A stretch of 64,000 nt of DNA from Candidatus Woesebacteria bacterium RIFCSPHIGHO2_01_FULL_39_32 (GTDB lineage: Bacteria > Patescibacteriota > Microgenomatia > UBA8517). Made by a program: the position numbers and the translations under genes. Of the stretch, positions 17,780-56,090 are shown piece after piece. The stretch lies in contig MGGJ01000001.1 of assembly GCA_001792345.1 (NCBI GenBank), positions 153,710 through 217,709 on the forward strand, written 5' to 3'. A model generated the notes under the pieces. It worked only from the letters and a program-made list of their open reading frames with translations. It did no database searches and was not told the DNA's origin. Each line of letters starts with the position of its first letter. Position 1 is the stretch's first letter.

Positions 17780-17786
17780 TTAGAGG

Positions 17787-18635: not shown

Positions 18636-18748
18636 AATATACCGAATTCAATTTTAGATATTAACCTAACTGCTAGATAAAATAAAGTGTTGAATAACGA
18701 TTGTGTAAAATCACCATTTAGAGATTAGTGCTACCATAGTATAAATGT
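18636..18748. promoter_or_regulatory. divergent promoter region between the -strand UGDH-like/epimerase pair and the +strand GME-like gene
   Basis: 113-nt AT-rich gap with a tataaat box at 18740..18746, just upstream of the 18749 start. The genes are divergently oriented. Confidence 0.3.
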
Positions 18749-19759: not shown

Positions 19760-19764
19760 TTTTA

Positions 19765-30865: not shown

Positions 30866-31339
30866 ATGCCACGAAGTAAAAAAATATTCTTTTTAATTTC
30901 CTTGTTAATTATCATTGGTCTTTTTGTTTTAAATGCAAAATCTGCAAATCCCAATAATCAACCGTACTATAACGCAAAACGCTTGTATGAAAAAACTTTA
31001 TTAGCACTTAAAACCAATCCCGAAAAAAAGTTAGATTACCAACTCAGTCTTTTAGATAAAAGACTGAGTGAGCTATCCTTTATTGTACTAAATGGAAAAT
31101 CGGAGCATATTTTAAAAACATCTTTGAGATACTCAACAACTGCGGGACAGTCTACAGAACAAGTCATAAATAATAATTTGAAAGGAAGATCTGATGGAGT
31201 AAAACAAAAATTGGAATCGCATCTTAAAGTAGTCGACAATCTTGTGGCTAATTATCCAAAAGACGATGGACAGAAAAAATTTGTAATCGATGCTAGCAAT
31301 TACTTAAAAACTTACATAATTCAGTTAACAACAAATTAG
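30866..31339 (+). CDS. small secreted/membrane-anchored hypothetical protein
   Basis: 157 aa with an N-terminal hydrophobic signal/anchor (FFLISLLIIIGLFVLNA), then a hydrophilic domain. Confidence 0.4.
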   Translation: MPRSKKIFFLISLLIIIGLFVLNAKSANPNNQPYYNAKRLYEKTLLALKTNPEKKLDYQLSLLDKRLSELSFIVLNGKSEHILKTSLRYSTTAGQSTEQVINNNLKGRSDGVKQKLESHLKVVDNLVANYPKDDGQKKFVIDASNYLKTYIIQLTTN

Positions 31340-35653: not shown

Positions 35654-36037
35654 ATGAGAATATGTATAGACTTAGATGGGGTAATTTGTGAAGTAAGGAG
35701 GAAGAATCAATCATACGAGGATGTAAAACCCTTACCAGGAGCAATCGAAAAAATTCAAGAATTAAAAAGTAAAGGTCACTATATTATTATTTCTACCTCT
35801 CGGCACATGAAGACTACAGACGGCAATGTAAATAAAATATTAGCAAAAGTAGGAGAAATAACACTTACTTGGTTAAGAAAACATAAGATTCCATTTGACG
35901 AGATAAATTTTGGTAAACCTTACGCTCATATTTATATCGATGATAAAGCTGTTCGCTTTAGTGGATGGAAAAAAATAAGAGGAGATGGGGGTAACCTCCC
36001 TCTTAAAAAGGAAGATAAAGAGTTTAAAGTCAAATGA
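35654..36037 (+). CDS. HAD-superfamily-like small phosphatase
   Basis: Begins MRICIDLDGVIC (DxDG motif). 127 aa, downstream Lys and YIDD (motif IV-like). Confidence 0.4.
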   Translation: MRICIDLDGVICEVRRKNQSYEDVKPLPGAIEKIQELKSKGHYIIISTSRHMKTTDGNVNKILAKVGEITLTWLRKHKIPFDEINFGKPYAHIYIDDKAVRFSGWKKIRGDGGNLPLKKEDKEFKVK

Positions 36038-37800: not shown

Positions 37801-38883
37801 ATGAGACCATTAGTTTCATTGCTTATACTAACTTATAATAGGCCTGATCTTCTCAAGGCCTGTCTGAAAAGTGCCGTAGCATCAGATTATCCAAATCTCC
37901 AATTTATTATTTCCGATAACGGACAAATGGCGACAACACAGAATCTCATCAGGCGTGAATTTTCAGATGTTTTCGTAAAAGTTGTTTCTGCTGGCAGGAA
38001 TGTCGGTCTTACTGGTGGTTTTAATTACGGATTTAAATATTGTCGTGGTAAATATGTAATGCTTCTTTCCAACGATACAAAAATAGACAAAGGTGCGATT
38101 TCTAATATGGTGAATATGGTGGAAAAAGATAAGAAAATAGGCATCGTAGCACCAAAAGTAATACAGATGAAAAATAGTAATTATTTACACAGCGTTGGTA
38201 GTTTTTTTACTTATTCTGGAATTCTTTATCATTACGGTCTATCAAAAATCAAAAATAATCCGTTGTACGAGATACCCTATTACACCTTTAGTGCTAACGG
38301 TTCAGGGTTTATGATAAGACGGGATATCGTTAAAAAAACTGGGCTTTTTGAACAAGAATTTTTTGTTGCATATGATGAAAGCGATCTTTGTCATAGAGTC
38401 TGGCTTTCCGGACATACTATTGTCTATTGTCCAAAAGCAGAGCTTTTGCATCTTTGGGGTGCAACAATAGGGGGTACCGAAAAAGAAGAAAATCCGAAAG
38501 TATGGTTTCTCAATGATAGAAATAAAATAACTTCTTTTATAGTAAATCTTTCTTTAGCTAATTTATTGATTGTACTCGCTATTTTTAATAGCATTTTGAT
38601 TACGTGGTTTTTTGTAAATATTGTAAGAGGTAGAACTAAAACCGCAATCATGCTTCCCCAAGCCTATTGGTGGCACATAATTAATTTCAGAAAGACGCTC
38701 ATGAAAAGAAAGAAGGTTCAAACAAAAATTAGGAAAGTAAGTGACGAAGAAATATTTAAAAAGTGTATGCTAAATCCAAAAGTTAAGTATTATTATCTGC
38801 TTTACAGATATGGAGTAATAGAGGGACTAAAAAAATACAAAGATACTAAATTACCAGACAGGATATTATATTTATCCGAATGA
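37801..38883 (+). CDS. glycosyltransferase family 2 with C-terminal TM helices
   Basis: VSLLILTYNRPDLLKACL...FIISDNG; DES (DxD-like) motif; hydrophobic C-terminal segments. Confidence 0.7.
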   Translation: MRPLVSLLILTYNRPDLLKACLKSAVASDYPNLQFIISDNGQMATTQNLIRREFSDVFVKVVSAGRNVGLTGGFNYGFKYCRGKYVMLLSNDTKIDKGAISNMVNMVEKDKKIGIVAPKVIQMKNSNYLHSVGSFFTYSGILYHYGLSKIKNNPLYEIPYYTFSANGSGFMIRRDIVKKTGLFEQEFFVAYDESDLCHRVWLSGHTIVYCPKAELLHLWGATIGGTEKEENPKVWFLNDRNKITSFIVNLSLANLLIVLAIFNSILITWFFVNIVRGRTKTAIMLPQAYWWHIINFRKTLMKRKKVQTKIRKVSDEEIFKKCMLNPKVKYYYLLYRYGVIEGLKKYKDTKLPDRILYLSE

Positions 38884-41051
38884 AGCATTACCTAATTCTT
38901 TTTGTTATATGCATAAGCTTAGTTCTCATCTGGTTTAGTAAAGGCTTAATCTTTGCAGGAGGAGAAGAGGGCATGCCCTTTTATAATTTGGAGTTGACTT
39001 ACCGCAACTATTCCTATGTTTGGAAAGATGCCGAAGGGGGAATTAGTAATTATTCAGATATATTAAGAGTTCCTAGTTTTTATATTCTTCAAAAATTATC
39101 GAGCATTGGCCTATCCTCGGTTTTAATTCAAGGAACATTTTTTTTGGCTTTAATGCTAATTGGTACTTTCTCAGTATTTTTTTTATTACAGGAAACCGTA
39201 GTTAAGGGTGCTTTAAAAGTAACTAAAGATACACCGTCATACAAAGATATTTCCTTAATTGGGTCTATCTTCTATCTTCTTAACCCTTTTGCTATGACTC
39301 AAGTTTGGGGAAGGGGCCTTTATATGCAGTATTATCCCTTTGCACTTATACCACTTTTTTTGCTTTTGTTTATTTTAGCATTGAAAACAAGAAATCTAAT
39401 TTTTGTAAGTTTGGCATTAGTTTCTTCGTTTATATTGGCAGGATCTTATGGACATTTAAGTTATGTGATTTCGCTTTGGGGCATAATTTTTGCATATCTA
39501 ATTTACTTTTGTATAAATAATAAAAGTAAAGAAGAGAGAACATTTTCGGTTAAAATATTTTTGCTCTTTGTGGTTGGTTGGATTTTTACAAATCTTTGGT
39601 GGATAATGCCATTTTCTTCTTCAATCAACACTTTTGCCCAAAATTACAGCGACATAGAACATAGTTTGGGTACTTTAATTGGAAACAGTCGAGAAATTCC
39701 ATTAAACGGAGTTTTGAGGTTAATGCATAACGGATTTGTCTATAAATGGAAAATTTACGGGGAGTCTTATTTAAATTTATTTTTTAAACTCATAAGCTGG
39801 TTTATTCCAATTATTTCGCTTTTTGCATTAAGGTCCTGTAAGAATATAAAATCGCTGAACTTTTATTTAGTACTCTTTTTGATCACCTTGTTTATAAGTT
39901 TGGGTTCTAATCCGCCATTGGGATGGTTATTCATTATCTTATTTAAGGCAATACCTCAAATGGTTCTTTACAGAAATCCATTTGAAAAAATTGGTATTTT
40001 ACTTACAATCGCATATGCTCCTTTATTCGCAGTAGGACTTGTCGAACTTTCTAAATTCATATCCAATAAGTTGAAGAAAAGCTTAGATTTTTTAAGAATA
40101 ACTCATATTTCTAATTTATTTATTCTTATTTCAATGATTTTAATTTTTGGTATTCATGCGTGGCCTATGTGGAAAGGAGTTTTTGCTGGTGGATATGTAA
40201 CTAATGTATGGATTAATGTTCCCAAATATTACAAACAAGCAAATAATTGGTTAAACGAAGAAACTGGAGAATTTAATCTTATTCACTTTCCCTTAGCTCC
40301 TGGTGACGGCATGAAATTTATTTGGCCGAATTACTTTCAAGGCGTAGTACCTTATGATTTTTTGTTTGATCGACCTTCGATATCTAAAAACACTTTCTTT
40401 AATAAAATTTATTATAACGTGTTGCTAGAGAGATTTGGAAAACTTGAGAAAGGGGCGTTTGGACCAGATCCAGATATTTCAAATTCTCAACTGAAAACTA
40501 AAGATTTATATGAAGGTCTACAAAAACTAAACGTAAGATATATTTTACTTCATAAAGATGTAGATCCTGTTATTGGAAATTTGGGCGATTACAGGTTGTA
40601 CGAAGAGATTCTTAAGAAAGAGGAAAATATCACAAAAATAATTAACTTCGGAGAAATTGATATTTATGAGGTAACCCCGCCAGAGAAAGTTGATTTAATT
40701 TTTACAAGTCAGGGAAAAGTTGATTTCGAGAAAATAAATCCGACAGAATATGTTGCTACATTAAAGGGTGTTAAGAAAGACGATAAATTAGTTTTGTTAA
40801 CTTTATATGATCCGAACTGGAGTTTATATGTGAATGGTATGGTTGCGGCTGATCATAATCGTTATTTTTCTTGGGCTAACTCTTGGACTTTAGATAAGCT
40901 TGGTGATTATTCGGTAACTATTAAGTATAAACCGCAAGAAAATGTGCAAAAAGGTTTCAGAATTTCTATTTTCTTGTTGAGCCTTTTATTGTTTACGACA
41001 TTTATTTACAGATGGAAAGAGAGAAGCGATAAATTACCTAAAAATGTTTGA
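38880..41051 (+). CDS. giant polytopic membrane protein, GT-C-like (paralog A; AftD/YfhO-like by architecture)
   Basis: 723 aa with ~12 N-terminal TM helices, a soluble domain and a C-terminal TM. Shares the motifs AGGEEGMPFYN, GSNPPLGW and YRNPFEKIGI with the 49252 and 53286 proteins. Confidence 0.5.
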   Translation: MKHYLILFVICISLVLIWFSKGLIFAGGEEGMPFYNLELTYRNYSYVWKDAEGGISNYSDILRVPSFYILQKLSSIGLSSVLIQGTFFLALMLIGTFSVFFLLQETVVKGALKVTKDTPSYKDISLIGSIFYLLNPFAMTQVWGRGLYMQYYPFALIPLFLLLFILALKTRNLIFVSLALVSSFILAGSYGHLSYVISLWGIIFAYLIYFCINNKSKEERTFSVKIFLLFVVGWIFTNLWWIMPFSSSINTFAQNYSDIEHSLGTLIGNSREIPLNGVLRLMHNGFVYKWKIYGESYLNLFFKLISWFIPIISLFALRSCKNIKSLNFYLVLFLITLFISLGSNPPLGWLFIILFKAIPQMVLYRNPFEKIGILLTIAYAPLFAVGLVELSKFISNKLKKSLDFLRITHISNLFILISMILIFGIHAWPMWKGVFAGGYVTNVWINVPKYYKQANNWLNEETGEFNLIHFPLAPGDGMKFIWPNYFQGVVPYDFLFDRPSISKNTFFNKIYYNVLLERFGKLEKGAFGPDPDISNSQLKTKDLYEGLQKLNVRYILLHKDVDPVIGNLGDYRLYEEILKKEENITKIINFGEIDIYEVTPPEKVDLIFTSQGKVDFEKINPTEYVATLKGVKKDDKLVLLTLYDPNWSLYVNGMVAADHNRYFSWANSWTLDKLGDYSVTIKYKPQENVQKGFRISIFLLSLLLFTTFIYRWKERSDKLPKNV

Positions 41052-42303
41052 TATAAAACAAATCCGTATCTTTGCTCTAGCTGCTTATGGAAAAGGACTT
41101 TCTGGGGGAGATAGGATTTTTATTGAATTTGCCAGACGTTGGAGTAAAAATTTTCCTGTGGAAATTTATGTTTGGAAAGAAGGAGCCAAAATGTTGGAAA
41201 GACAACATCTGGGTATTTTCAATTCACAATTTTCACTTTTTAATGCAAATAAAGATTACCGAAATTTAAAAGTTCACGTTTCGAAATTAAAAAACCTATG
41301 TAAATTAGGATTCTTATTTTGCTACCTTACCAGAATTATTGAAGGAATTCGTTTAGGACTTTCTTTAAAACTAATCACCAATCACCAATCACCAATTACT
41401 ATATACTCTGCATCAGAATTTTGGATGGATTCACTCCCCGCTTTCATATTAAAACTCAGATATCCGAAGATAACTTGGGCCGCATCGTGGTATCAAACTG
41501 CTCCCAACCCATTTCATGGATATTTAGAAAATGGACAACGTAGAAATAAATATTTTTTTAGCAGTCTCTTCTATTGGCTAATGCAACTACCGATAAAGCC
41601 GCTTATTTCAAGCTTTGCTGACTATGTTTTAGTAAATAACGAGGAAGAACGAAAGCAATTTTCCGATTTGAACAAAAAGGGTAGAATGATAGTGGTTTTG
41701 GGCGCGGTTCCACTTGAAGAAATTAATAAATTTTTAATTACTAATTCCAAACTATTAACTACTAAAGAATATGACGCTGTCTTTCAAGGACGCTTACACG
41801 CGCAAAAGGGAGTGGTTGAATTAATCGACATTTGGAAAAAAGTGGTTGAGATAAAACCGTTAGCAAAATTGGCGATGATTGGAGATGGTCCCTTGATGGG
41901 AAAGGTAAAGAAACGAATAACTATGAATAAACTAACTAATAACATTAAAGTTTTTGGGTATGTTTTCGACGGGCCCAAAAAATATAAAATATTTTCCAAA
42001 AGTAAGATTGTCGTGCATCCCGCATTTTATGATTCAGGTGGAATGGCATCTGCAGAAGCAATGGCTTTTGGATTACCATGCGTCGGCTTTAACTTAAAAG
42101 CGTATAAATCTTATTATCCTCAGGGTATGGTTAAGGTAGATATTGGAAACACAAATGCTTTTGCAAAAAAAATAATGGAATTATTAGAAAATTATTCTTT
42201 GCGTATAAAAATAGGTAGAGAAGCTAAGTACATGATAGAAGAAAACTGGTCGTGGGAAAAAAGAGCTAACGAAGTTTTGGAACGAATAACTACAAATAAA
42301 TGA
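41044..42303 (+). CDS. glycosyltransferase family 4-like
   Basis: C-terminal HPAFYDSGGMASAEAMAFGLPCVGFN. Contains a 3x heptanucleotide repeat at 41374..41394. Confidence 0.6.
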   Translation: MFDIKQIRIFALAAYGKGLSGGDRIFIEFARRWSKNFPVEIYVWKEGAKMLERQHLGIFNSQFSLFNANKDYRNLKVHVSKLKNLCKLGFLFCYLTRIIEGIRLGLSLKLITNHQSPITIYSASEFWMDSLPAFILKLRYPKITWAASWYQTAPNPFHGYLENGQRRNKYFFSSLFYWLMQLPIKPLISSFADYVLVNNEEERKQFSDLNKKGRMIVVLGAVPLEEINKFLITNSKLLTTKEYDAVFQGRLHAQKGVVELIDIWKKVVEIKPLAKLAMIGDGPLMGKVKKRITMNKLTNNIKVFGYVFDGPKKYKIFSKSKIVVHPAFYDSGGMASAEAMAFGLPCVGFNLKAYKSYYPQGMVKVDIGNTNAFAKKIMELLENYSLRIKIGREAKYMIEENWSWEKRANEVLERITTNK

Positions 42304-43250
42304 GACGAATAAAACATTTTGTATCTATTACTGATTTAACTAAAAAAGAAATTAATCTTGTCCTTCAAATTTCCTCAAGTCTCAAAAGACAATTAAAGAA
42401 AAAAGGGAGCAACAAAGATTATTTAAAAAATAAAGTATTGGGAATGATTTTTGAAAAACCATCTCTGCGTACAAGAGTTTCATTTGAGGCAGGAATGACT
42501 CAAATGGGAGGACATGCAATTTATCTTGCGCCCGGGGATATTGATTTGGGTAAAAGAGAGCCTGTGAAAGATGTTTCTCAGGTTTTATCAAGGATGGTTG
42601 ATATTATTATGGCTCGAACTTTTCTTCATACTACCATAGAAGAGCTAGCTAAGTATTCAAGTGTTCCTGTTATTAATGCTTTGTCGGAACAAGAGCATCC
42701 TTGTCAGATTTTAGCTGATTTATTAACTATAAAAGAAAAGAAAGGAAAATTAAAAGGTATTAAGTTAGCATTTGTTGGTGATGGCGAAAATAATGTAACT
42801 CATTCTTTAGCTTTAGCCTCAGCAATTTTTGGAATGGATTTTCGGGTAGCAACACCTCCTGGTTTTGAAATGCAAAGCATCATTTTAGAAAAGGCAAAAG
42901 CAATTGCAAGTAAGAGCGGTGGACTAATTATAGAGACAGATAAACCCGAAGAAGCTGTAAAAGGAGTCGACATTGTCTACACAGATACATGGGTTTCTAT
43001 GGGTGATGAGTCTGAGAAAGACAAGCGTATAAAAGCTTTTAAAGGATATCAAGTAAACACTAGATTGATGAATTTTGCAAAAAAGGATGCAATATTTATG
43101 CATGATATGCCTGCCTATAGGGGTTATGAGGTTAGTGAAGAAGTTATTGAAGGAAAGCAATCTATAATAATCAATCAAGCAGAGAATAGACTACATGTTC
43201 AGAAGGGTTTGATTTGTTTTCTCCTACGTACTACCATCAATACATCATGA
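42300..43250 (+). CDS. divergent ornithine/aspartate carbamoyltransferase-family protein (OTCase-like fold)
   Basis: Collinear with OTCase: PSLRTRVSFE (canonical STRTR), HPCQ (HPTQ), DTWVSMG (DxxxSMG), FMHDMPA (canonical HCLP). 316 aa, translationally coupled inside the GT cluster. Confidence 0.65.
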   Translation: MRRIKHFVSITDLTKKEINLVLQISSSLKRQLKKKGSNKDYLKNKVLGMIFEKPSLRTRVSFEAGMTQMGGHAIYLAPGDIDLGKREPVKDVSQVLSRMVDIIMARTFLHTTIEELAKYSSVPVINALSEQEHPCQILADLLTIKEKKGKLKGIKLAFVGDGENNVTHSLALASAIFGMDFRVATPPGFEMQSIILEKAKAIASKSGGLIIETDKPEEAVKGVDIVYTDTWVSMGDESEKDKRIKAFKGYQVNTRLMNFAKKDAIFMHDMPAYRGYEVSEEVIEGKQSIIINQAENRLHVQKGLICFLLRTTINTS

Positions 43251-44866
43251 AACCTAAAAAACGGGGAGTTTCTACTGTCATTCCCAGTTTTAACAATTCT
43301 TTAAAATTATTTCGCCTTATCAATTCGCTGAAAAAAACAACCTATAGACCTCTCGAAGTAATTGTTGTAGATAATAGTTCAACCGAAGCCATGATAAAAC
43401 AGGGGAGGAAAAAATTCCCCTGGGTTAAATGGGTTGATGCTGGAAGAGAGAATGTCGGGCAAACAGGTTCATACAATCTAGGTTTCGCTCATGCAAATCC
43501 ACAAAACCACATTCTTTTTTGTGATGAGGACGTTGTGGTTGACCCTTCTATGGTGAGTAATCTAGTGAAGCGCGCGGAGACTAAAAAAAATATAGGTATA
43601 GTAACACCAATGATTTTGTATTTGGATGATAAAGAATGGGTAAATCAGGCCGGATCTGAAGTTAATCTTTTGACGGGGCAAGTAAAAATTGGCTGGGGTC
43701 CAAAAGAAGACTTTCTTGAGGCAAGAAAAGTGCAAGGTTCTGGAACAGTAATGCTTTTTAAGAGATCAGTTCTAGATAAGATTGGAGGCTTTGAGGATTG
43801 GTTTTTATGTTATTTTGACCCCGAGTATTGTGTTCGTGCACAAAAGGCGGGTTTTGAAAATTGGTATGAGCCTAAAGCTATTTGTTACCATGATCAACCC
43901 AAGGACGATAAGCTATGGCGCCCAAGAGTTTTATCACGCGCTTACTTGCTCGGTAAAAATAGAACATTGTTTATGAGAAAGCACGGAAATGTTTTTGTTT
44001 ATACACTTTTCTTACCGATTCTTTTGGGATACTACCTTATTGAAGGTATAAGATTTGGAATATTTAGCAAATGGGTTGAAATAGTTATAGGTTCAATTGC
44101 TGGATATTTTTCTCCAATTTCAAAAGGAAACTTTATTCCTTTACCAAGTTCTCATGGATTAAAAAATAAAATGAGTGGTAAAACTTTAAGTTTCATACAC
44201 ACGCCGTCCATTGATGCATTCTTGTCAAAATTTACCCTACATATACCCTTTTCTTATTTATGGTTATACAAGCATTCCCTAGGAGATTCGAATACAATAC
44301 TTGATGTTGGGTGCGGTGACGGTCTTCTTATGAAACGGCTATCCGAGGGAGAAAGTTGGGAGATTACAGGAATTGATATCTATCAAAAAGGCTTATCGAA
44401 AGCAAAGAAAAAAAAAGTCTACAAAGAACTTATAAAGGGAGATGTCGTGAAAGTTTGTAGTGACTTAGTTCGAAAAAAAAAGAAGTACGAGAGCGTTTTT
44501 TGTTCTCAAGTTATCGAGCACATAAACAGAAAGGAAGGGTTTGAGCTCCTAGCTGTAATGGATAAACTGGCAAGTAAAAGAGTGGTTGTTGCAACTCCGC
44601 GTGGATTTATGAATCAACCCGAGGTATTTATTGGAGGTAACCCCTACCAATATCACAAGTCTGGTTGGACCATTGAAGATTTCAAAAGCAGGGGGTTTAG
44701 GGTATATGGGCTGGGTTTAAAATTGAGTTGGTCTGAGAAGGGCTTAAGCAGAAGTAATAATAATCTAGTTGTAATATTATCTGTGATAACGTCATTCATT
44801 CTATCCCCTCTGGTTTATTATTTCCCAAACTTATCCGCAGGTGTTTTGTGTATTAGAGATAAATGA
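43214..44866 (+). CDS. fusion: GT2 glycosyltransferase + class-I SAM methyltransferase
   Basis: N-terminal VSTVIPSFNNS...VIVVDNSS and DED motif. Two TM helices follow. C-terminal ILDVGCGDGLLMKRL...VVVATP is MTase motifs I/post-I. Confidence 0.65.
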   Translation: MFSPTYYHQYIMKPKKRGVSTVIPSFNNSLKLFRLINSLKKTTYRPLEVIVVDNSSTEAMIKQGRKKFPWVKWVDAGRENVGQTGSYNLGFAHANPQNHILFCDEDVVVDPSMVSNLVKRAETKKNIGIVTPMILYLDDKEWVNQAGSEVNLLTGQVKIGWGPKEDFLEARKVQGSGTVMLFKRSVLDKIGGFEDWFLCYFDPEYCVRAQKAGFENWYEPKAICYHDQPKDDKLWRPRVLSRAYLLGKNRTLFMRKHGNVFVYTLFLPILLGYYLIEGIRFGIFSKWVEIVIGSIAGYFSPISKGNFIPLPSSHGLKNKMSGKTLSFIHTPSIDAFLSKFTLHIPFSYLWLYKHSLGDSNTILDVGCGDGLLMKRLSEGESWEITGIDIYQKGLSKAKKKKVYKELIKGDVVKVCSDLVRKKKKYESVFCSQVIEHINRKEGFELLAVMDKLASKRVVVATPRGFMNQPEVFIGGNPYQYHKSGWTIEDFKSRGFRVYGLGLKLSWSEKGLSRSNNNLVVILSVITSFILSPLVYYFPNLSAGVLCIRDK

Positions 44867-45807
44867 AAGAGAAGATTTCAGCAATCATAGTTACGATGAA
44901 TCGAAAGGAAGAATTAATTGAGTGCATTGATTCTTTGGTCGAATCGAAGTGTAATTTTTTTGAAATAATAGTTGTTGATAATGGCTCAATTGTTCCAACC
45001 TCGCGCTTTTTAAAAAGAAAGTACCCTAAACTGAAGATAATTCGAAGTGAAGAAAATGTTGGAGCGGCTGCAGGGAGAAATATTGGTATTAAGAATGCAA
45101 AAGGGAACTATTACTTTTTCATGGACGATGATGCAAGGATAGATAAAAATGCAATTTGCGAAATGCTCAAACTCTTTAAGTTTAAAAAGAGTATAGGGAT
45201 TGTACAACCAAAAGTTTATGATAAGGACAAACCCGACATTTTGCAGGGAGTTGGACATACGATTAATCTTTTAACTGGTCGGGCGAAAGCCTGGGGAGTA
45301 ATGGAAGAAGACAAGGGTCAGTACGATTTAGATCGAGAGATTCCCATGACAGGAGGAATATGTTTGGTTAAACGAAAAGTAATCGATGATATAGGGATGT
45401 TTGATGAAGATTATTTTATACCTTATGAAGACTCCGATTTATGCATCCGCGCAATAAAAGCTGGATATAAAGTTTATTGTTCAGGAAGTGCTAAGTCCTG
45501 GCATCAGGGCAAGAAACAAACTGCCGTTAACCCTCGGTTGGAATGGATGGGTGTAACTACTCCTGAAAGGGCATATCGAATAGCCAGAAACAAAATGATG
45601 TTTTTAAGAAAGCATGCGCCTCACTCCAAGTTAATGGTTTTTCTTATTTTCATTCTACCGTTCTACGCTATAGCCCATTCCGCTATTATTGTAAGTTCAA
45701 AAAGATGGGATATATTGAGTAGTTATTGGAAAGGTTTGTTTGCCGGCCTTTTATACTTTACAACTTATAGAGAAAAACCTACTTCTTTTTATATGTATTT
45801 GTTTTAA
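44863..45807 (+). CDS. glycosyltransferase family 2 (tandem paralog 1)
   Basis: ISAIIVTMNRKEELIECIDSL...IIVVDNGS; DDD. Paralogous to the N-domain of the downstream gene. Confidence 0.7.
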   Translation: MKEKISAIIVTMNRKEELIECIDSLVESKCNFFEIIVVDNGSIVPTSRFLKRKYPKLKIIRSEENVGAAAGRNIGIKNAKGNYYFFMDDDARIDKNAICEMLKLFKFKKSIGIVQPKVYDKDKPDILQGVGHTINLLTGRAKAWGVMEEDKGQYDLDREIPMTGGICLVKRKVIDDIGMFDEDYFIPYEDSDLCIRAIKAGYKVYCSGSAKSWHQGKKQTAVNPRLEWMGVTTPERAYRIARNKMMFLRKHAPHSKLMVFLIFILPFYAIAHSAIIVSSKRWDILSSYWKGLFAGLLYFTTYREKPTSFYMYLF

Positions 45808-45809
45808 CT

Positions 45810-48524: not shown

Positions 48525-48527
48525 GTA

Positions 48528-49220
48528 ATGTATATGTTGAAATCAAAAAAATCATCACCTGGCACAAATTTTAATCATTACCTATTTACTCTGAAATTAT
48601 GGCTAGACTCACGCGTTGAACCAATATGTAGAGTTATCGATAAATCGGCCGAAAGTATTTTAGACGTAGGTTGTGGTCAAGGTTATCCGATGAGGCTCAT
48701 CAGATTAGTAATGGAACCGAAGAAAGTTGTAGGAGTTGACCTTTTTAACGAATATATTGAAGAAGCAAAATCCGCGCATTTACATGATAAGTATGTCATA
48801 TCAGATATTCGGAAGTTGAAATTTCCAAAAAAAAGTTTCGATGTCGTTCTTGCATCGCAAGTTATTGAACACTTGCCTAAAAAGGATGCAAGAAAATTTA
48901 TTAAAGATTTAGAGCGGATTGCAAAAAAGCAAGTAATTATTGCAACACCAATAGGGGAGATGTATCATCCTGCGGTAGATGATAATGAATTGCAACTTCA
49001 TTTATCAAATTACTATCCTGAATATTTTGAAAAGTTAGGATACAGGATTCTAAAATATGGTAGAAAATCTTTATTGGGGGACCACGGATTAGTTCATAAA
49101 ATTCCTAATGGGATATTGAGAAAATGCCTTTTTCTTTTCAATATTCTTATAAGTCCTTTCTATTATGTCTTCCAACCGATTGCGGATTATTATTTTGTGG
49201 CCTACAAGACGTTTAAATAA
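48528..49220 (+). CDS. class-I SAM-dependent methyltransferase
   Basis: ILDVGCGQGYPMRL; DVVLASQVIEHL; IIATP. Confidence 0.65.
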   Translation: MYMLKSKKSSPGTNFNHYLFTLKLWLDSRVEPICRVIDKSAESILDVGCGQGYPMRLIRLVMEPKKVVGVDLFNEYIEEAKSAHLHDKYVISDIRKLKFPKKSFDVVLASQVIEHLPKKDARKFIKDLERIAKKQVIIATPIGEMYHPAVDDNELQLHLSNYYPEYFEKLGYRILKYGRKSLLGDHGLVHKIPNGILRKCLFLFNILISPFYYVFQPIADYYFVAYKTFK

Positions 49221-49251
49221 ATTATTTTACCCATTTAGTAAATTCAAATAT

Positions 49252-52200
49252 ATGAATAAAAAAATATTTATTTTACTTTTACTGTCCTCAGTATTGTTGA
49301 CTACAATTTTGTTTAAAGACAAGACCATATTAGGCGGAGGGGAATCGGGAGTTCCGTTTTATAACATCACAAGGATGTTTAAAGATAGTTCCAGTTCGTG
49401 GCTGGATGGACTTCTTGGAAGTTACATACCTCAATCTGTTGCCAATTATCCATACTTAAAAATTTTCAGCTTCCTCGAGGTACAAGGTATTAATGGGTAT
49501 GTTTTGCAAGCACTATTTACATTTATTGCACTTTTAATATCTCTCGTCTTTTTCTTCCTTCTTACAAAAGAAGTATTTTCAAATTATCCAAATAGCGCTT
49601 ATTTATTTTCATCCTTCTTCTATTTATTCAATTTCTACAGTGCAATGAATATTTGGAATAGATTCTTACTGAATTTTCTTCTTTTCTATTCGGTCCTACC
49701 TATGTTTTTGTGGCTTTACATGAGGTTTTTAAGGAGCAGGAACTTTGTATATTTAGGTTTATTCTTGATGCTTTCATTTATTTTTTCTTACGCCTTTTCG
49801 TCTCCTGGTCACATTATGATTTTCTGGTTTTTATTGTTATTCATTAGCTTATTTGAGTTGATGAAAGACAAAAAAAAGGTAGCTCAGGTTAAAAATTTTG
49901 TTATTACTTTAATGTTATGGCTTTTGGTTAATTTTTGGTGGATTTTACAGCAAGCCGCATATGCTATTTCGGAATCATTTAAGTCAATAAGTACGGAGTA
50001 TTTTTCTGACGTAGGAAATACTATTGGCTTCAGTTTTTTAAGTAATGTCTTGGGTAAATTTGAGAATCTATATCTTTTGAAACATGGTTTATTTTATAAC
50101 CAAGAATATGACTTTATTCTTAAATGGCCGCTTATTTACAAAAAACCACTGCTTTTGATCGTTGAGTGGATGGCGAGTCTTTATATACTTTACTGGGCTA
50201 TTAACAACAGAAAGAGATTGTCCGTCGTATTTAGTTTGGGCCTGTTACTTATTGGCTTCATACTGGCGAAAGGGAATTCCCCGCCTCTGGGAGAAGTATT
50301 TGACTTTTTTTTCCAGCGCTTTTCATTTGTACAGTTTTTTCGAAATCCATTTGAAAAATTGGGGATAATTCCGACGATGGGTTTCTCCCTGATGATTGGA
50401 CCATCGTTGTCCGATTTGGCCAAAAAGTTAAGCCGTCAAAAACCATTTTTGAGGGTTTTTATTCCACTAGTTTCGTTTACATATATAGTTGTTATTTTGG
50501 GTTTTCCTTTTTGGAGCGGCCTAGTATTTACTGGAAGCCAAGCGCCACTTAATGATCCTGAAGTAGGGCTGCGGGTGGAGGTACCATCTTATTATAAGGA
50601 TGCAGACAATTGGCTGTCTCTAGAGGACAAGGATACAAGATTTATGACATTTCCATTAGGTGGCGAAGGTATCCAATATCTTTGGCCAAAGGGTTATTTG
50701 GGAGTTGAGGAATCGGCGATTCTTTTCGAGAATGCTAATATTTCAAGTGTTTTGGCCTTTCCGTATTACGATAAAATTGCGTCAAATCTTCAAAAACTAT
50801 TTACAAAAAACATAGATTTTTACAAAATTGCCTCACTTCTAAATGCAAGATATTTACTTTTCAGGCCGGACATAGAATTTAAAAATTCAGGCATGAAAGA
50901 CCCCGCATATATAGATAATTTGTTCGAAGAAAGAGTCAGTAACGAAAAAGCAAATATTTCTTTTGCATCGCAGTTTGGTCCGCTAAAGTTTTATAAGTTA
51001 GATAATAAAGTTACTTTACCGAAGATTTATGCTGCTAATAATTACGTTAATGGAGGTTCTGGCGCCGACATTGAACAGTTTTTGCTCTCGGGCGCTGAAG
51101 TTGGGGATGTTATGTACAATTCCGGGTGGCCCGTGAGAAATAAACTCGATGCTAATACGTCTTTTTATGTTTCAAAGAATAAAGCCATATTTTATCTTCC
51201 AGGACCTCAATACCCGCTATTTGTTGATGCGCCTTACATTTTTCCTTATGTTTCACACTTACCAAGCTCACCGATATATTCGTTGTTGATCATTAAAGAA
51301 AATCTTCAAAGAAATTTATATTCAGATAAAGAAAGTAAGCTTAGATGGGATTTATTGACTTTAGGGAAACGACTAATTGAGGTCAGAAACGCTCTTTCGG
51401 CCGGAGACGAGAAAGGTGCTATTAAATCCCTACAAATTTACAGAAAAAATTTAGCTAGTGTTGTTTCCGACATAGATCTGGTTTCGAAATCGTTAAAAAA
51501 ACCCGGAGAGCAGGTTTGGAACGAAAAAATGCTTACAGAAATTTTTAGCAGTCATCTTTTTCTTTTTAACGATTTTGAAAAAAGTACATTAAATAGCGAT
51601 GGCAGTATTACGGACCTGAAAAAACAACTCTTATTATCCGTTTCCAAATTGAAAATATTACCATATTACTATCCAATAGTTAGCGAAGATTTTCCTTTAG
51701 AGAGCAGAGTAGTCTATGGAGTAGAAATAGACTCCTCGGGGGAATATGACGTAATTTTCCCAAAATCAATATTCTTTCCTGAATACTTTGGTATTAATCA
51801 ACGTATTAATATACAGATCGACGACGTAGTATATTCAACGCAAATAGGAATAGATAATAATAAGGTGTATTTTGGTAAATATTATTTATCGGAGGGCTAT
51901 CATGAAATTTCTTTCAACCAGTTTTCGAAAATAAATTTAATCGACGAAAATTTAACTAGCTTTGAATTAAATTCTATCCATGGCGAAGACTCTATAAATA
52001 TCCCAATAAAAACTTACGATGCATATTCTCAATACGAAATATCATTTGACTACCTCATTCATTACGGGAATGGCCCAGTCCTACAGGTGAGTTTAAATAA
52101 CGATAAGATTATCAAGAAAGATGGAGTTGAGACAGAACAGTATTATTTTGAAAAGTATCTTCCCCCTGATGATTATTATTTTATAAAAAGACCTTATTCG

Positions 52201-52788
52201 ACTGTTGTTAATCCAGACCCGTCATCCGACACGATGACACTAATATTTAGCGCAATCCCTTGGAATAATTGTACAAAGATTTTTTACAAAAACCCAAAGA
52301 AATGTAGCGATGTTTCGATAAGTAAGACCTATGAAAGACCAACAAAGGTGGAAATTACAAATCTGCAAATCCACCCCAGATTTTCAAGAGAACTTTTTGT
52401 ACTAAGAGTCGATGCGGTAGATGAAAAAGTATCACCAAAAATTTCTTTTACTAAAAAGAGTCACACTCATTATAAAGTGGAGGTTCGTGATTCGGAGAAG
52501 CCCTTTGTTTTGGTCTTTTCTGAATTATTTGACAAGGGATGGAAACTTTACCTAAATGGCGATAGTAAGCGGTATCCCGAGAATAACCATTTTTTGGCCA
52601 ATAGTTATGCAAACGGTTGGTTAATAGAAAATGAGGGAGACTTTAATTTGGAACTTAAATTTGTGCCCGATAAATTTAAAGAAATGGGATTGTATTTATC
52701 CTTTTTCGTACTTGGGCTGATTTTTCTTATTACGCTGTTATTGTCCGTTAATGTTTTTTTGTCTAAAAGATTTAATAAAGGATTATGA
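49252..52788 (+). CDS. giant polytopic membrane protein, GT-C-like (paralog B)
   Basis: The ORF-track start of 49165 overlaps the upstream gene; Met30 (MNKKIFILLLL) at 49252 fits a signal/TM start. ~1180 aa. Motifs LGGGESGVPFYN, KGNSPPLGE, FRNPFEKLGI. C-terminal TM. Confidence 0.5.
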   Translation: MNKKIFILLLLSSVLLTTILFKDKTILGGGESGVPFYNITRMFKDSSSSWLDGLLGSYIPQSVANYPYLKIFSFLEVQGINGYVLQALFTFIALLISLVFFFLLTKEVFSNYPNSAYLFSSFFYLFNFYSAMNIWNRFLLNFLLFYSVLPMFLWLYMRFLRSRNFVYLGLFLMLSFIFSYAFSSPGHIMIFWFLLLFISLFELMKDKKKVAQVKNFVITLMLWLLVNFWWILQQAAYAISESFKSISTEYFSDVGNTIGFSFLSNVLGKFENLYLLKHGLFYNQEYDFILKWPLIYKKPLLLIVEWMASLYILYWAINNRKRLSVVFSLGLLLIGFILAKGNSPPLGEVFDFFFQRFSFVQFFRNPFEKLGIIPTMGFSLMIGPSLSDLAKKLSRQKPFLRVFIPLVSFTYIVVILGFPFWSGLVFTGSQAPLNDPEVGLRVEVPSYYKDADNWLSLEDKDTRFMTFPLGGEGIQYLWPKGYLGVEESAILFENANISSVLAFPYYDKIASNLQKLFTKNIDFYKIASLLNARYLLFRPDIEFKNSGMKDPAYIDNLFEERVSNEKANISFASQFGPLKFYKLDNKVTLPKIYAANNYVNGGSGADIEQFLLSGAEVGDVMYNSGWPVRNKLDANTSFYVSKNKAIFYLPGPQYPLFVDAPYIFPYVSHLPSSPIYSLLIIKENLQRNLYSDKESKLRWDLLTLGKRLIEVRNALSAGDEKGAIKSLQIYRKNLASVVSDIDLVSKSLKKPGEQVWNEKMLTEIFSSHLFLFNDFEKSTLNSDGSITDLKKQLLLSVSKLKILPYYYPIVSEDFPLESRVVYGVEIDSSGEYDVIFPKSIFFPEYFGINQRINIQIDDVVYSTQIGIDNNKVYFGKYYLSEGYHEISFNQFSKINLIDENLTSFELNSIHGEDSINIPIKTYDAYSQYEISFDYLIHYGNGPVLQVSLNNDKIIKKDGVETEQYYFEKYLPPDDYYFIKRPYSTVVNPDPSSDTMTLIFSAIPWNNCTKIFYKNPKKCSDVSISKTYERPTKVEITNLQIHPRFSRELFVLRVDAVDEKVSPKISFTKKSHTHYKVEVRDSEKPFVLVFSELFDKGWKLYLNGDSKRYPENNHFLANSYANGWLIENEGDFNLELKFVPDKFKEMGLYLSFFVLGLIFLITLLLSVNVFLSKRFNKGL

Positions 52789-53132
52789 AAAAAATACGTA
52801 GTTATAGATATCCCATTTTTATTTTTTCATTGTTTGTCCTAACTGTCCTTAATATAATAAAAATAGTTGCGCGATCAAGGTTTGCTGTAAATATATTTCC
52901 TAACCTACATTACTGGTTATGGACGATTATTCTAATAGAAGCTGTTTTTGTTTTTAACATTAAGATCAAAAATGTTTTAAAAATAGCTCTTGCTTTAACA
53001 GTAGTCGGGGGAGCTTTATCTATTTTTAGAATTGTTATTGCTGAAAATGTACTAAAATTCGGTTTTATATTGTGGATAGTGGGTTATCTTTTTAATCTTA
53101 TTGAGATTGTTAGAAAAAATGAAATTAATTAA
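52785..53132 (+). CDS. small membrane protein
   Basis: 115 aa with 3-4 TM helices. Translationally coupled. Confidence 0.35.
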   Translation: MKKIRSYRYPIFIFSLFVLTVLNIIKIVARSRFAVNIFPNLHYWLWTIILIEAVFVFNIKIKNVLKIALALTVVGGALSIFRIVIAENVLKFGFILWIVGYLFNLIEIVRKNEIN

Positions 53133-53289
53133 TAGTACCTCCTTTTTTCTTACGTTTTTATTATCACTGATCTTATCACTTGTATCTTTTCTAACGTATC
53201 ATCCCAGAATGAGCGAGTGGATGCTTAATACTAGCTTCACGTTTATCGTTATTGGAACGTTATTCTACTTTCGGGATCTCAAAAAATGA
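53119..53289 (+). CDS. small membrane peptide (possible)
   Basis: 57 aa from internal Met (MKLINSTSFFLTF...) with two hydrophobic helices. Short, low confidence. Confidence 0.2.
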   Translation: MKLINSTSFFLTFLLSLILSLVSFLTYHPRMSEWMLNTSFTFIVIGTLFYFRDLKK

Positions 53290-56090
53290 AAATTCACAGA
53301 ACCGGCCTTTTTTTAATATTAATCATTATTTATAGTAGACTTTTTTCAACCTTTGCTAACGTAGCGAATGATCTTCACTTCGCGTTTTTAGAAAATTTGA
53401 AGGAACAGCTAACTTTACCGATGTCTTGGAGTGCGAGAGGCGCAGTCGGTCTTGGCGAATATGCAGTGTTTGTTCTTTGGAACTGGCCATTAAATTATTT
53501 ATTCGGAGTATTAGGTGGCTTAGGTTTACCCTATACACTTCTGATCAAATGTTTAGGTTTTGGGTTATTTATAATCGTTGCAGTTTGGTCAATTTCGAGA
53601 ATATTAGAATATTTAAATATTTCTGAGTTCGGGAGACTTATTGGCATCCTGTTTTATCTGTCAAATAGTTATATCTTACTTCTTTTGGATGGAGGACAGT
53701 TAAATCTTGCTTTAGCCTACTCGCTTTTACCTCTGACATTTCTTTTATATAAAAAGGGAGAGGAGACAAAATCTTTGAAGGGATCAATATTATTTGCTAT
53801 TTCAACGATTGTTCTTTCAATTTTTGACATTAGAATACTTTATTTGTTAGCACTTTTAATTTTTCTTAATTTTTTGGTTACATTGTTTCTTAAACCAAAT
53901 TCAATTAAAGACATAATAGGTTCTAATTTGAAAATGGCGTTATTGTCGGGAGCAATATTTGTTGGATTCCATGCATATTGGATCATACCTTCTTTATTTG
54001 CAAGAGCTCCAAGTTTGCCGACTAGTTATGGGAGGGTATTTCAAGTAGATTTATTAAGTTTTGCATCATTGGGACATTCTTTGACTCTTTTACAACCACA
54101 CTGGTACAGGAATGTTTTTGGGAAAATTACCGAATTAAAGCTCGAATTTATGTTGATTCCTCTGTTGGTTCTTCTCGCGCCCATATTCAGACGAAAAGAC
54201 AAAAATATAGCCTTTTGGCTTATCGTATTAGTTGTAGGTATATTCATGATAAAAGGAGCAAACCCGCCCCTACCCCAAGTCTATCCGTGGCTTTTTACTC
54301 ATATGCCGGGTCTTTCGTTTTTTCGCGACCCCACTAAGTTTTTCTTTTTGGTTGCACTTTCTTATTCTGTTTTAATAGGGATAACAGTAGACGAGGTTAG
54401 TCAAAGATTATCTATATTAAAGATAAAGAGCGGATTTCTTAAATCTTATATCCTAAATCCTAAAACATTTGTGTTTCTTCTTGCTGTCTACTTCTTACTA
54501 CTTGTCCGACCTATTTGGCTTGGCCAAATGACTGGGACTTTTTCTCCTCCAATTTATCAGAACGAATATGAAGAGATAAATTCCTTAGTCGAGAAAGACT
54601 CTTCGTTTGGCAGAGTATTTTGGATTCCGACAAAAGCACCCTTAGGATATTCTTCATTTAAACACCCATCGGTTGAAGCTTCAAGGTTAGTTGAAAAGCG
54701 ACCATTCGCAATTGGAACGGTCGGAACTTACGAAATTTTTAATTATTTACGAGAAGCACCTTTTATGGGTGAACTTTTTGATGTTGCAGGAATTCGCTAC
54801 ATTGTATATCCATACCCGGATACAAGACGTGAGGAGTTAAAACAAGACAATATTGATTATTACTATGCATTTTTGGATCAGTTATCAAATCTTCCTTGGG
54901 TTGAAAGTCGAGTTTCCGATCCGCCCGTGCCTTTATTAAAGGTTAAAGAAGCCCAGGACCATTTCTTTATTACAAACAATACCTATCTTGTTATCGGTTC
55001 GGATAAAATTTATAACGATTTAGCTAGGATTGAAGGGTTTAAGTTGTCGAATAATGCCTTGATTTTCGCTGAGGAACAACCTGCAGTAGGGAATACGTGC
55101 AAGGACCGTCCCTGCACGGTAATTTTGTATGACAAAAATGAAATCGATTACGCGGCTACCTTTATAGATAAAAGTAATTTTATTTTTCCCGCGGGTCAGT
55201 TGGAATTCAGTCCTTCGGCGAACTCAGGATCTTCGGGCTGGTGGAAAAGAGAAACACTAGATCTTTTATGGTGGCGCAATTTTTTGCAGGAAAAATATGG
55301 AATTGATAATCAGGATTTTGATTTTGGTGGCGGTTGGGCTGTCGCCGAAGGCGACAAACAATTGACGATTAACGATAAGAAATTTACAAAAGATAATAAA
55401 CTTCTTGCGAGATTAATGTTAAGTAATCGTGGAGGTAGGATGAATTTTTTTCAGGGTGACCAAGAGGTTGGAGAGATTGATACGAGAATAGAGGAACCGG
55501 AAAAAGTCGAAATTAAACTGACCGGTTACGCCGAGATTCCTGATCAAATTTTTGAGTACGACGAGTCAGAGGTCAGATGGTTTGAAATAGGCAATTTGGT
55601 GTCGGATCAACACATAACCATAAAAGCCGAAGGCGAAATTAATGTTGTTAATTCATTGGTTTCGTTACCCCAAGCCGAGTTTGACCGTCTCCGTAGTTTA
55701 GTCTACAAAGACAATATAATTCATTGGGAAAGTCTCGGAAATGATGCGAAAAACGAGTTAGTTAGAGTTGAGTCTTCGCCCCAGGTTAGCTATCAGCGAA
55801 TAAACCCTACACACTATAAAGTAAGTATCGAGAAAATTGCGTCTCCGGTTACCCTGGCGTTTTCAGAAACTTACGATCCTTTATGGGAAATTACAAATAT
55901 TGAAACCGGCCAAAAAAACACGTCATATCCACTTTACAGTTTAATCAATGGTTTTTATGTCGACAAAGACGGCGAGTATGAAATTTACTTCTCCCCCCAA
56001 AAATATGTTTATCCCGGCCTGGCTATAAGCGGAATGACGGTTTTTGGCATTATCGCATTGCTTTACTACTCCAGGAAAAGGCAACAATAA
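53286..56090 (+). CDS. giant polytopic membrane protein, GT-C-like (paralog C, more divergent)
   Basis: 934 aa. Shares KGANPPLPQ and FRDPTKFFF with paralogs A/B. N-terminal multi-TM, a large soluble domain, and a C-terminal TM (GMTVFGIIALLYY). Confidence 0.5.
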   Translation: MKIHRTGLFLILIIIYSRLFSTFANVANDLHFAFLENLKEQLTLPMSWSARGAVGLGEYAVFVLWNWPLNYLFGVLGGLGLPYTLLIKCLGFGLFIIVAVWSISRILEYLNISEFGRLIGILFYLSNSYILLLLDGGQLNLALAYSLLPLTFLLYKKGEETKSLKGSILFAISTIVLSIFDIRILYLLALLIFLNFLVTLFLKPNSIKDIIGSNLKMALLSGAIFVGFHAYWIIPSLFARAPSLPTSYGRVFQVDLLSFASLGHSLTLLQPHWYRNVFGKITELKLEFMLIPLLVLLAPIFRRKDKNIAFWLIVLVVGIFMIKGANPPLPQVYPWLFTHMPGLSFFRDPTKFFFLVALSYSVLIGITVDEVSQRLSILKIKSGFLKSYILNPKTFVFLLAVYFLLLVRPIWLGQMTGTFSPPIYQNEYEEINSLVEKDSSFGRVFWIPTKAPLGYSSFKHPSVEASRLVEKRPFAIGTVGTYEIFNYLREAPFMGELFDVAGIRYIVYPYPDTRREELKQDNIDYYYAFLDQLSNLPWVESRVSDPPVPLLKVKEAQDHFFITNNTYLVIGSDKIYNDLARIEGFKLSNNALIFAEEQPAVGNTCKDRPCTVILYDKNEIDYAATFIDKSNFIFPAGQLEFSPSANSGSSGWWKRETLDLLWWRNFLQEKYGIDNQDFDFGGGWAVAEGDKQLTINDKKFTKDNKLLARLMLSNRGGRMNFFQGDQEVGEIDTRIEEPEKVEIKLTGYAEIPDQIFEYDESEVRWFEIGNLVSDQHITIKAEGEINVVNSLVSLPQAEFDRLRSLVYKDNIIHWESLGNDAKNELVRVESSPQVSYQRINPTHYKVSIEKIASPVTLAFSETYDPLWEITNIETGQKNTSYPLYSLINGFYVDKDGEYEIYFSPQKYVYPGLAISGMTVFGIIALLYYSRKRQQ

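Follow-up and report, generated by a model that had tools for sequence, protein, structure and literature searches.

Three paralogous AftD-like GT-C proteins in a conserved envelope-glycan gene cluster of Candidatus Woesebacteria

What do three very large membrane proteins do within a bacterial glycan gene cluster, and are they related to one another? The question is raised by a stretch of DNA from Candidatus Woesebacteria bacterium RIFCSPHIGHO2_01_FULL_39_32, an ultra-small member of the candidate phyla radiation (CPR); the whole stretch of 64 kb is called the window below. It carries three large open reading frames (ORFs) for polytopic membrane proteins, named here A (38880-41051), B (49252-52788) and C (53286-56090). 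An earlier note, made from the sequence alone, described the three as paralogs with common short motifs and saw in them a resemblance to AftD/YfhO-type GT-C glycosyltransferases (GTs), naming EmbC as a further protein for comparison. We find that A, B and C are anciently diverged true paralogs. They are best explained as membrane-embedded GT-C transferases of the AftD branch, predicted to use a lipid-linked donor and encoded in a conserved envelope-glycan cluster of the Microgenomates type. From the sequence comparisons and structural models described below, we put the probability of this reading at about 0.7.

Paralogy of the three proteins

All three ORFs listed in the earlier note are present on the + strand. 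For B, the ORF listing has an in-frame ATG further upstream as the start (49165; 1207 aa), so that B overlaps the methyltransferase gene before it. We prefer 49252 as the start (1178 aa, MNKKIFILLL...), since B then lines up at its N-terminus with A and with the B orthologs. Using composition-adjusted statistics, BLASTP aligned A with B at an E-value of 1e-48 (27% identity over 668 aa), with a separate match between the C-terminal domains at 4e-11. C matched A at 9e-12 in the transmembrane (TM) core and at 1e-7 in the C-terminal domain, and it matched B at 1e-10 and 4e-10. When family alignments of 36 A/B-type and 35 C-type sequences were compared as profiles with hhalign, the probability was 100% and E was 1.2e-46 over 656 columns. 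The proposed paralogy is thus borne out.

Generic polytopic architecture, taken by itself, would also suit transporters or unrelated polytopic proteins whose similarity is one of hydrophobic composition only. However, the pairwise and profile E-values are strong, the soluble domains match separately, and the closest known fold is that of AftD, as described below; the similarity is therefore not a composition artefact, and we give this explanation practically no chance. In structure searches, major facilitator superfamily and other transporters appeared only as noise (Foldseek E > 0.07, probability ~0.1). Neither of the outcomes that the earlier note had named as refuting its proposal, a lack of pairwise similarity and a confident match to a transporter family, was thus observed.

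Protein A is identical to hypothetical protein A2715_04995 of the same organism in NCBI. The named homologs of A and C come nearly all from Patescibacteria (Woesebacteria, Daviesbacteria), with one C homolog labelled Actinobacteria.

Relationship to the AftD family

A matches the Pfam family GT-C_AftD (PF11847) with 35.1 bits and an E-value of 4.9e-9, above the gathering threshold of 26 bits. B scores 9.9 bits, below threshold, and its orthologs (1140-1191 aa) carry precomputed PF11847 matches. For C there was no Pfam match at E-values up to 1, and none of the C-type homologs listed has a Pfam annotation. A-type homologs are named 'alpha-(1->3)-arabinofuranosyltransferase family protein' by PGAP. 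The one curated family found for C was NCBIfam MmpA (NF053599), matched over residues 96-471 at E 1.9e-13 and 49.8 bits, which does not reach the equivalog cut-off of 210 bits; A and B had no match to this model.

Searches against the PDB with single sequences of A, B and C (phmmer) gave nothing relevant, and the C-family profile had no match there either. With the A/B profile, the best match, a weak one, was AftD of Mycobacterium abscessus (6W98, 6WBX) in four colinear stretches, among them the terminal domain (profile 629-692 to AftD 1202-1265). For direct comparison of profiles, the AftD side was built from intact mycobacterial aftD genes taken from genomes. Against it, hhalign gave E 2.6e-8 for the A/B family, 1.5e-6 for the B subfamily (AftD 34-565) and 2.5e-4 to 4.5e-4 for the C-terminal domains, that of B being 2.5e-4. 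It should be noted that aftD of M. tuberculosis CAS/NITR204 (CP005386.1, 6001-10080) is broken by frameshifts into at least five called gene fragments, which is probably an assembly-quality problem and not biology.

The C-type branch is very large. Among 1.84 billion representatives, its profile retrieved 9411 clusters at 50% identity with E<=1e-3, and 1888 with E<=1e-30.

Predicted fold and topology

AlphaFold (AF2) models of A (pLDDT 92.3, pTM 0.92) and C (pLDDT 89.2, pTM 0.85) both have an N-terminal bundle that is best read as 11 TM helices, as in AftD. After it come a soluble domain rich in beta structure and a single long helix at the C-terminus. The architecture described in the earlier note, a TM bundle with a large soluble domain and a single C-terminal helix, therefore stands, with the bundle better counted as 11 helices than as 12. 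The C-terminal tails of A, B and C are basic, which fits an extracytoplasmic location of the soluble domain. In B the soluble region holds a weak DUF5667-like segment (17 bits; residues 670-741, about 51259-51474) that is likewise weak in the B orthologs. The same operon also has a gene (30866-31339) for a separate DUF5667 protein (39 bits).

When the models were searched against the PDB with Foldseek, AftD (6W98_A) came first for A (E 5.6e-11) and for C (E 1.1e-13). Its lead over the other structures was 4-9 orders of magnitude, and only AftD matched over the soluble and C-terminal domains. The next matches for both proteins were STT3, PglB and AftA, those to STT3 and PglB having E-values of 1e-6 to 1e-4 and TM-scores of ~0.4-0.48. 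The soluble part of C also retrieved CBM6-type modules, carbohydrate-binding modules (CBMs), and other beta-sandwiches (cycloisomaltooligosaccharide glucanotransferase and Cry-toxin structures).

Membership of other GT-C families was considered and rejected. No Pfam match of A, B or C to YfhO (PF09586) or to the Emb families was found at E-values up to 1, and EmbB and EmbA-EmbB structures scored well below AftD (E 0.3-0.5 for A, 6e-3 for C). Of the resemblances seen in the earlier note, the one to AftD has consequently gained support from PF11847, the profiles, the fold and the conserved acid described in the next section, and there is no specific similarity to YfhO or Emb. Membership of the oligosaccharyltransferases (OSTs; STT3, PglB, AglB) was rejected on scores far weaker than those of AftD and on the lack of a WWDYG-type motif: a search of A, B and C with the expression WW[DE]xG found none, and the hallmark WWD(Y/W/F)G is missing.

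Conserved motifs and extracytoplasmic loops

The earlier note had listed three short motifs common to the proteins, of which a GGEEG-type sequence was claimed for A and B only, and had stated that they matched nothing that could be named. All three motifs are present, with some distinct differences. The first, which is GGEEGMPFYN in A and GGGESGVPFYN (from residue 28) in B, is better written (A/G)GGE(E/S)G, since A reads AGGEEGMPFYN. C has no GGEEG sequence and instead has an invariant Asp29 in the equivalent loop. The second motif is NPPL in A (344) and C (326), and SPPL in B (343). The third is YRNPFEK in A (364) and FRNPFEK in B (363), whereas the FRDPTK of C (346) is one residue shorter. 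The motifs are not orphans: in the AftD-type fold they mark the first extracytoplasmic loop (EL1) and the two ends of the fifth (EL5).

The first extracytoplasmic loop is the site of the catalytic acid in GT-C enzymes. TM1 spans residues 2-18 in the model of A and 2-20 in that of C, and the first motif lies about ten residues further on, in EL1. An acid in this loop, which the earlier note had proposed to look for in models, was found at position 29; it is E or D in all 36 A/B-family sequences and D in all 35 of the C family. In a joint alignment, position 29 falls within the PDTKLD loop of AftD, on the first Asp and not on D41. This AftD loop holds the essential residues K39 and D41 (M. abscessus AftD paper).

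In AftD, EL5 lies between TM9 and TM10 and is a 27-residue unresolved mobile loop containing D351, with the essential K361 after it (M. abscessus AftD paper). The model of A has the same order of elements: the TM9 helix (325-341), GSNPPLG, two short helices, YRNPFEK and the TM10 helix (367-399). In this region G342, P346, G348, F355, R365 and K370 are invariant in 36/36 A/B-family sequences, as are K323, G324, P328, F346, R347, D348 and K351 in 35/35 C-family sequences. The C-family profile places RDPTK on the RNVHK sequence of AftD, the K of which is K361, and GANPPLP on GLGSPLA. From this alignment and the spacing, AftD K361 has its probable counterpart in the invariant K of R-(N/D)-P-x-(E)-K. 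An acid aligned with AftD E475 is found in 33/36 A/B-family and 34/35 C-family sequences. After TM11, A and B have a signature, PxWxG...VPxYY...NWL, that resembles AWTG...IPQYW...DWL in AftD; the consensus of the three is (P/A)xWxG...(V/I)PxY(Y/W)...(N/D)xWL.

Several observations weigh against placing the three proteins as active enzymes in the AftD branch. The direct comparison of the C family with AftD gave E 0.04, which is not significant even though the alignment is colinear; the connection of C to AftD therefore runs through transitivity, MmpA and the fold. The mapping onto the five essential AftD residues (K39, D41, E251, K361 and D474 in M. abscessus numbering) is incomplete, with no clear conserved counterparts of E251 and D474 in the family alignments. 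For the A/B family, both hhalign and MAFFT put RNP on the IRTP sequence of AftD, nine residues later than RNVHK; we favor the RNVHK register because the loop length (23 versus ~22-27) and the length of the following TM helix fit. In the AftD E475 column, A of the window has Val490 (40347-40349), the sole Val in the alignment. As to the donor, the OSTs are the second-best structural match, so that it could be a lipid-PP-oligosaccharide, and no gene in the window reaches the threshold of an NCBIfam equivalog for a polyprenyl-phosphate-sugar synthase.

Some of these points would be expected if one or more of the paralogs were inactive scaffolds or lipid-handling accessories, the role first proposed for actinobacterial MmpA. 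The Val490 of A could be read in this way, as could the fact that the only curated-family match of C is to MmpA, the 'trehalose lipid delivery protein', and for AftD itself a non-enzymatic role, as partner of TmaT, has been described (bioRxiv 10.64898/2026.07.31.741767). However, the MmpA score of C is far below the cut-off, MmpA is now itself a suspected glycosyltransferase (bioRxiv 10.64898/2026.07.31.741767), and no mycolate or trehalose-lipid pathway is found in the window cluster. Moreover, the loop residues D29, D135, D181, R183, R347, D348 and K351 of C are each conserved in 35/35 sequences, a pattern like that of an active site. We therefore regard such a role as quite unlikely, and transferases of the AftD branch remain the preferred reading.

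Conserved gene order

Region 38880-56090 lies within an array of co-directional genes on the + strand (29968-61184), in a window of low GC content (~35%). The genes around A, B and C, together with the loops described above, are listed in Table 1.

Table 1. Coordinates of A, B and C, their conserved loops and associated genes in the window
Feature	Position	Strand	Remarks
A, 723 aa	38880..41051	+	Minimal AftD-family GT-C; 11 TM, small beta-rich extracytoplasmic domain, one C-terminal TM helix
A EL1	38958..38987	+	Residues 27-36, GGEEGMPFYN; conserved acid Glu29
A EL5 (between TM9 and TM10)	39903..39989	+	Residues 342-370, GSNPPLG...YRNPFEK
B, 1178 aa	49252..52788	+	GT-C core, C-terminal domain and TM helix as in A; soluble region ~450 aa longer
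B EL5	50278..50358	+	Residues 343-369, SPPLG...FRNPFEK; aligns with A EL5
C, 934 aa	53286..56090	+	Divergent AftD-like GT-C; CBM-like beta-sandwich modules, one C-terminal TM helix
C EL5	54255..54338	+	Residues 324-351, GANPPLP...FFRDPTK
RGP/GT75-family protein	25912-27249	-	Pfam PF03214, 72.7 bits
AglJ/dolichyl-phosphate-hexose-transferase-like GT2	27246-27977	-	Sub-threshold; upstream of RGP gene, 4-nt overlap
GT2 glycosyltransferase, C-terminal TM segment	37801..38883	+	Pfam Glycos_transf_2; stop overlaps A start by 4 nt
GT4 glycosyltransferase	41044..42303	+	Pfam Glycos_transf_1; directly downstream of A
GT2-methyltransferase fusion protein	43214..44866	+	Pfam
S-adenosylmethionine-dependent methyltransferase	48528..49220	+	Pfam; directly upstream of B
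Small membrane protein, 115 aa	52785..53132	+	4 predicted TM segments; start overlaps B stop by 4 nt (translationally coupled)
Wzx-type flippase	56114..57415	+	Pfam Polysacc_synt; directly downstream of C
Two polytopic PMT/PMT_2 (ArnT-like) GT-C type proteins	57417..60345	+	Pfam PMT 19.2 bits (weak), PMT_2 41.3 bits

Gene order was compared with that of four other Patescibacteria contigs (L083, L084, L085 and L086). The order shared is (GT2)-A-GT4 ... GT2-methyltransferase fusion-methyltransferase-B-104-114-aa membrane protein-C-Wzx-GT2/methyltransferase/PMT_2. A GT2 gene directly upstream of the A ortholog is also found in L084; the GT4 gene directly follows the A ortholog in L083 and is one gene further downstream in L084. 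Upstream of the B orthologs, the GT2-methyltransferase fusion is present in L083, L084 and L085, and a methyltransferase is directly adjacent in L084, L085 and L086. The small membrane protein (104-114 aa) separates B from C in L083, L085 and L086, where the flippase is also directly downstream of C; a co-oriented Wzx adjoins C in every locus examined. PMT_2 genes follow in L085 and L086.

Each ortholog has its own paralog in the window as best match, which places the triplication before the divergence of these lineages. Identity to the window proteins is 42-45% for A and 41-44% for C, and only 25-26% for B, and thus B evolves fastest. This synteny supports functional coupling of the trio. The sequence of the small membrane protein is poorly kept among its positional orthologs (14-29% identity), and the protein of the window has no Pfam or NCBIfam match even at permissive E-values. 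With no family match and positional orthologs that can barely be aligned, its assignment as a GtrA- or ArnE-like flippase is unsupported; a role as flippase of a polyprenyl-phosphate sugar is one that we only infer.

The neighborhood of C bears on a further explanation, that one or more of the paralogs are OST-, ligase- or polymerase-like and transfer a Wzx-flipped polyprenyl-PP-oligosaccharide en bloc, not single sugars, the acceptor being an S-layer or pilin protein, a polymer of the wall or a further repeat unit. C would be the likeliest candidate because it always adjoins Wzx, and the conserved core has no recognizable Wzy or WaaL; the rank of STT3 and PglB directly after AftD in the structure searches points the same way. 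On the other hand, a 397-aa protein with 7 TM segments (9934-11127) adjoins the other Wzx of the window and could be a Wzy, though outside the core. The OST hallmark motif occurs in none of the three proteins, and the lead of AftD in structural score and its match over the soluble and C-terminal domains argue for the AftD branch. We therefore consider en-bloc transfer unlikely.

A proposed role in glycan assembly

If A, B and C are AftD-branch transferases, the following sequence of events can be suggested. Cytoplasmic GT2 and GT4 enzymes would build a polyprenyl-linked oligosaccharide, which Wzx would flip. A small GT2 would charge polyprenyl phosphate with single sugars, the AglJ-like gene of Table 1 being the candidate. 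A, B and C would act on the outer side of the membrane, each with such a lipid-phosphate sugar bound in the groove that its TM helices form. With the EL1 acid and EL5, each might transfer the sugar to the growing glycan, which would be held by the soluble domain of the enzyme itself. The soluble domain is small in A, very large in B and CBM-like in C, and this could provide three linkage or acceptor specificities and, if all three are active, different and probably consecutive steps of extension or branching. The product would be one surface polysaccharide, methylated and possibly carbamoylated. 'Successive elongation steps' of a polymer, as the earlier note had suggested, are plausible, with en-bloc transfer or branching as alternatives.

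The nature of the sugar was considered separately. The label 'arabinofuranosyl' that PGAP attaches to such proteins is not justified for A, B and C: the window has no genes of the decaprenyl-phospho-arabinose pathway, and none of the evidence points to arabinofuranose in particular. No homolog of a UbiA-type phosphoribosyltransferase or of DprE1 or DprE2 is found among the annotated ORFs of the window, which, within these 64 kb, argues against a decaprenyl-phospho-D-arabinofuranose donor route. Attempts to derive the sugar from the SDR, UDP-sugar dehydrogenase and GT2 genes failed in that none reaches an NCBIfam equivalog cut-off.

The RGP family in plants is UDP-arabinopyranose mutase. In the window, a UDP-sugar dehydrogenase and three SDR genes (16775-20772) are near the RGP gene; together with the RGP protein and the AglJ-like GT2 they could form a route from a UDP-pentofuranose to a polyprenyl-phosphate sugar. 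The dehydrogenase homolog (17787-18635, - strand; 282 aa) covers model positions ~70-297 of ~413 and looks truncated or split. A tie between RGP/GT75 and the trio is unsupported: no such gene was found within 10 kb of the A, B and C orthologs in four genomes. A more far-reaching idea is that CPR bacteria of the Microgenomates type make a complex extracytoplasmic polysaccharide of the wall by a fixed relay of three small AftD-type enzymes, arabinan-style and fed by lipid-phosphate sugars, outside Actinobacteria. In its boldest version, the sugar may be a pentofuranose supplied by a route new to bacteria, in which UDP-glucose dehydrogenase and SDRs make UDP-Arap, the RGP/GT75-like mutase converts it to UDP-Araf, and the AglJ-like GT2 makes polyprenyl-P-Araf, the donor for A, B and C. 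We regard this relay as very unlikely, the more general role of AftD-branch transferases being the one that we prefer.

Other genes of the window

Glycan synthesis takes up the whole window except for ~9 kb of unrelated genes at the beginning and an asparagine synthase gene close to the other end. Five GT4 and about nine GT2 genes are present, two of the latter with a methyltransferase fusion and one with a fused polytopic domain of no known family, and there are seven or more further methyltransferases. The window also encodes two nucleotidyltransferases, a NodU/CmcH-type carbamoyltransferase, a gene resembling ornithine carbamoyltransferase (OTCase), two Wzx flippases, the two PMT/PMT_2-type GT-C proteins, a UDP-sugar dehydrogenase fragment, three SDR epimerase/dehydratases and the RGP/GT75-like gene.

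The GT2 with the fused polytopic domain is a 904-aa protein (45810-48524). In its N-terminal GT2 domain it shares 47% identity with the adjacent GT2 (44863-45807), and its C-terminal ~585 aa are polytopic, have no Pfam match and show no similarity to A, B or C. The OTCase-like gene (ornithine/aspartate carbamoyltransferase-like; 42300-43250) lies within the glycan operon, 4.5 kb downstream of the NodU/CmcH-type O-carbamoyltransferase (36034-37797); it might serve as a source of carbamoyl phosphate for carbamoylation of sugars and perhaps is not a housekeeping argF.

A fourth paralog was sought within the window and none was found. The operon is headed by a 645-aa protein (28028-29965) with ~11 predicted TM segments and no Pfam match. 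Its hhalign match to the A/B family is weak but colinear (E 0.008; residues 117-338 to 121-328), which makes it a possible further GT-C enzyme, though a very distant one.

A gene a little upstream of those for glycan synthesis (7821-8363) encodes a DedA/VTT-domain protein, for which 5 TM segments are predicted. DedA proteins are implicated in recycling of the polyprenyl phosphate carrier. At the start of the window, an IS200-like transposase (635-1318, - strand) adjoins a gene (1480-3027) for an unusual protein in which a VKOR domain is fused to dihydroorotate dehydrogenase.

Significance

A-type proteins are already called AftD-family by Pfam and PGAP, and hence this is not a new kind of system; nor is a new mechanism revealed. 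What is new is the minimal architecture, a conserved trio outside Actinobacteria, and the very large C-type branch for which there is no Pfam model. No literature on AftD-like or GT-C enzymes in Patescibacteria/CPR was found. The compact three-paralog AftD type is a conserved feature of envelope-glycan clusters in Patescibacteria of the Woesebacteria and Daviesbacteria type, and with its recognition thousands of CPR membrane proteins now called 'hypothetical' can be given a concrete annotation. It also suggests that an elaborate, methylated glycan covers the surface of organisms with essentially uncharacterised envelopes, whose episymbiotic lifestyle depends on surface contacts. The minimal 723-aa AftD-like scaffold may lend itself to study more readily than the mycobacterial enzyme of 1400 aa.

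Comparison with known systems

AftD has been described as an Actinobacteria-wide mycobacterial wall enzyme, with 16 TM helices (11 + 5), three CBMs and a C-terminal helical bundle whose cytoplasmic face binds acyl carrier protein (AftD paper). Like AftD (Rv0236c; 6W98), A, B and C have a GT-C core of 11 TM helices with an extracytoplasmic domain after it, an acidic EL1 residue, a mobile EL5 bracketed by motifs of the types G-x-(S/N)-P-(P)-L and R-N-x-x-K, the post-TM11 signature, and a terminal beta-domain followed by a TM helix. They differ in several respects. They are half to four-fifths the size of AftD (723-1178 versus ~1400 aa), and they have one C-terminal helix where AftD has five, and hence neither the four-helix bundle nor the acyl-carrier-protein site. 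A lacks CBMs, having no domain of CBM size, and C has CBM6-like beta-sandwiches. EL1 contains GGEEG or AND in place of PDTKLD, the hosts are Patescibacteria and not Actinobacteria, and three paralogs occur in one operon. From sequence and models, the three proteins appear as stripped-down, modular versions of the AftD design.

MmpA (NCgl2761 / Rv0226c), the best curated-family match of C, is reported to share homology with the N-terminal 668 residues of AftD (PMC8698533) and was predicted to be a glycosyltransferase by Foldseek (bioRxiv 10.64898/2026.07.31.741767). It resembles C in being polytopic, in its similarity to the N-terminal part of AftD and in having one extracytoplasmic domain, and its gene is near aftD and a methyltransferase (PMC8698533; bioRxiv 10.64898/2026.07.31.741767). 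However, at ~475-540 aa it lacks the large CBM-like region and the C-terminal anchor of C, and its function is linked to the transport of trehalose mycolate, for which the window cluster has no equivalent.

In three-component extracytoplasmic glycosylation, a GT2 charges polyprenyl phosphate, a small flippase follows, and the third component is a GT-C enzyme, often with a CBM (PMC11127046). The systems GtrA/GtrB/GtrC, ArnC/ArnEF/ArnT and Citrobacter ORF12-15 (GT136) have the same logic of three roles, for which the window offers as candidates the AglJ-like GT2, the small 4-TM protein between B and C, and the GT-C enzymes. Unlike GtrC, ArnT and GT136, A, B and C belong to the AftD branch, and no similarity to GtrA or ArnE/F was detected for the small 4-TM protein. 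In STT3, PglB and AglB, finally, the TM core has the same GT-C fold as in A, B and C, the differences being the soluble domain and the WWDYG motif, which A, B and C lack.

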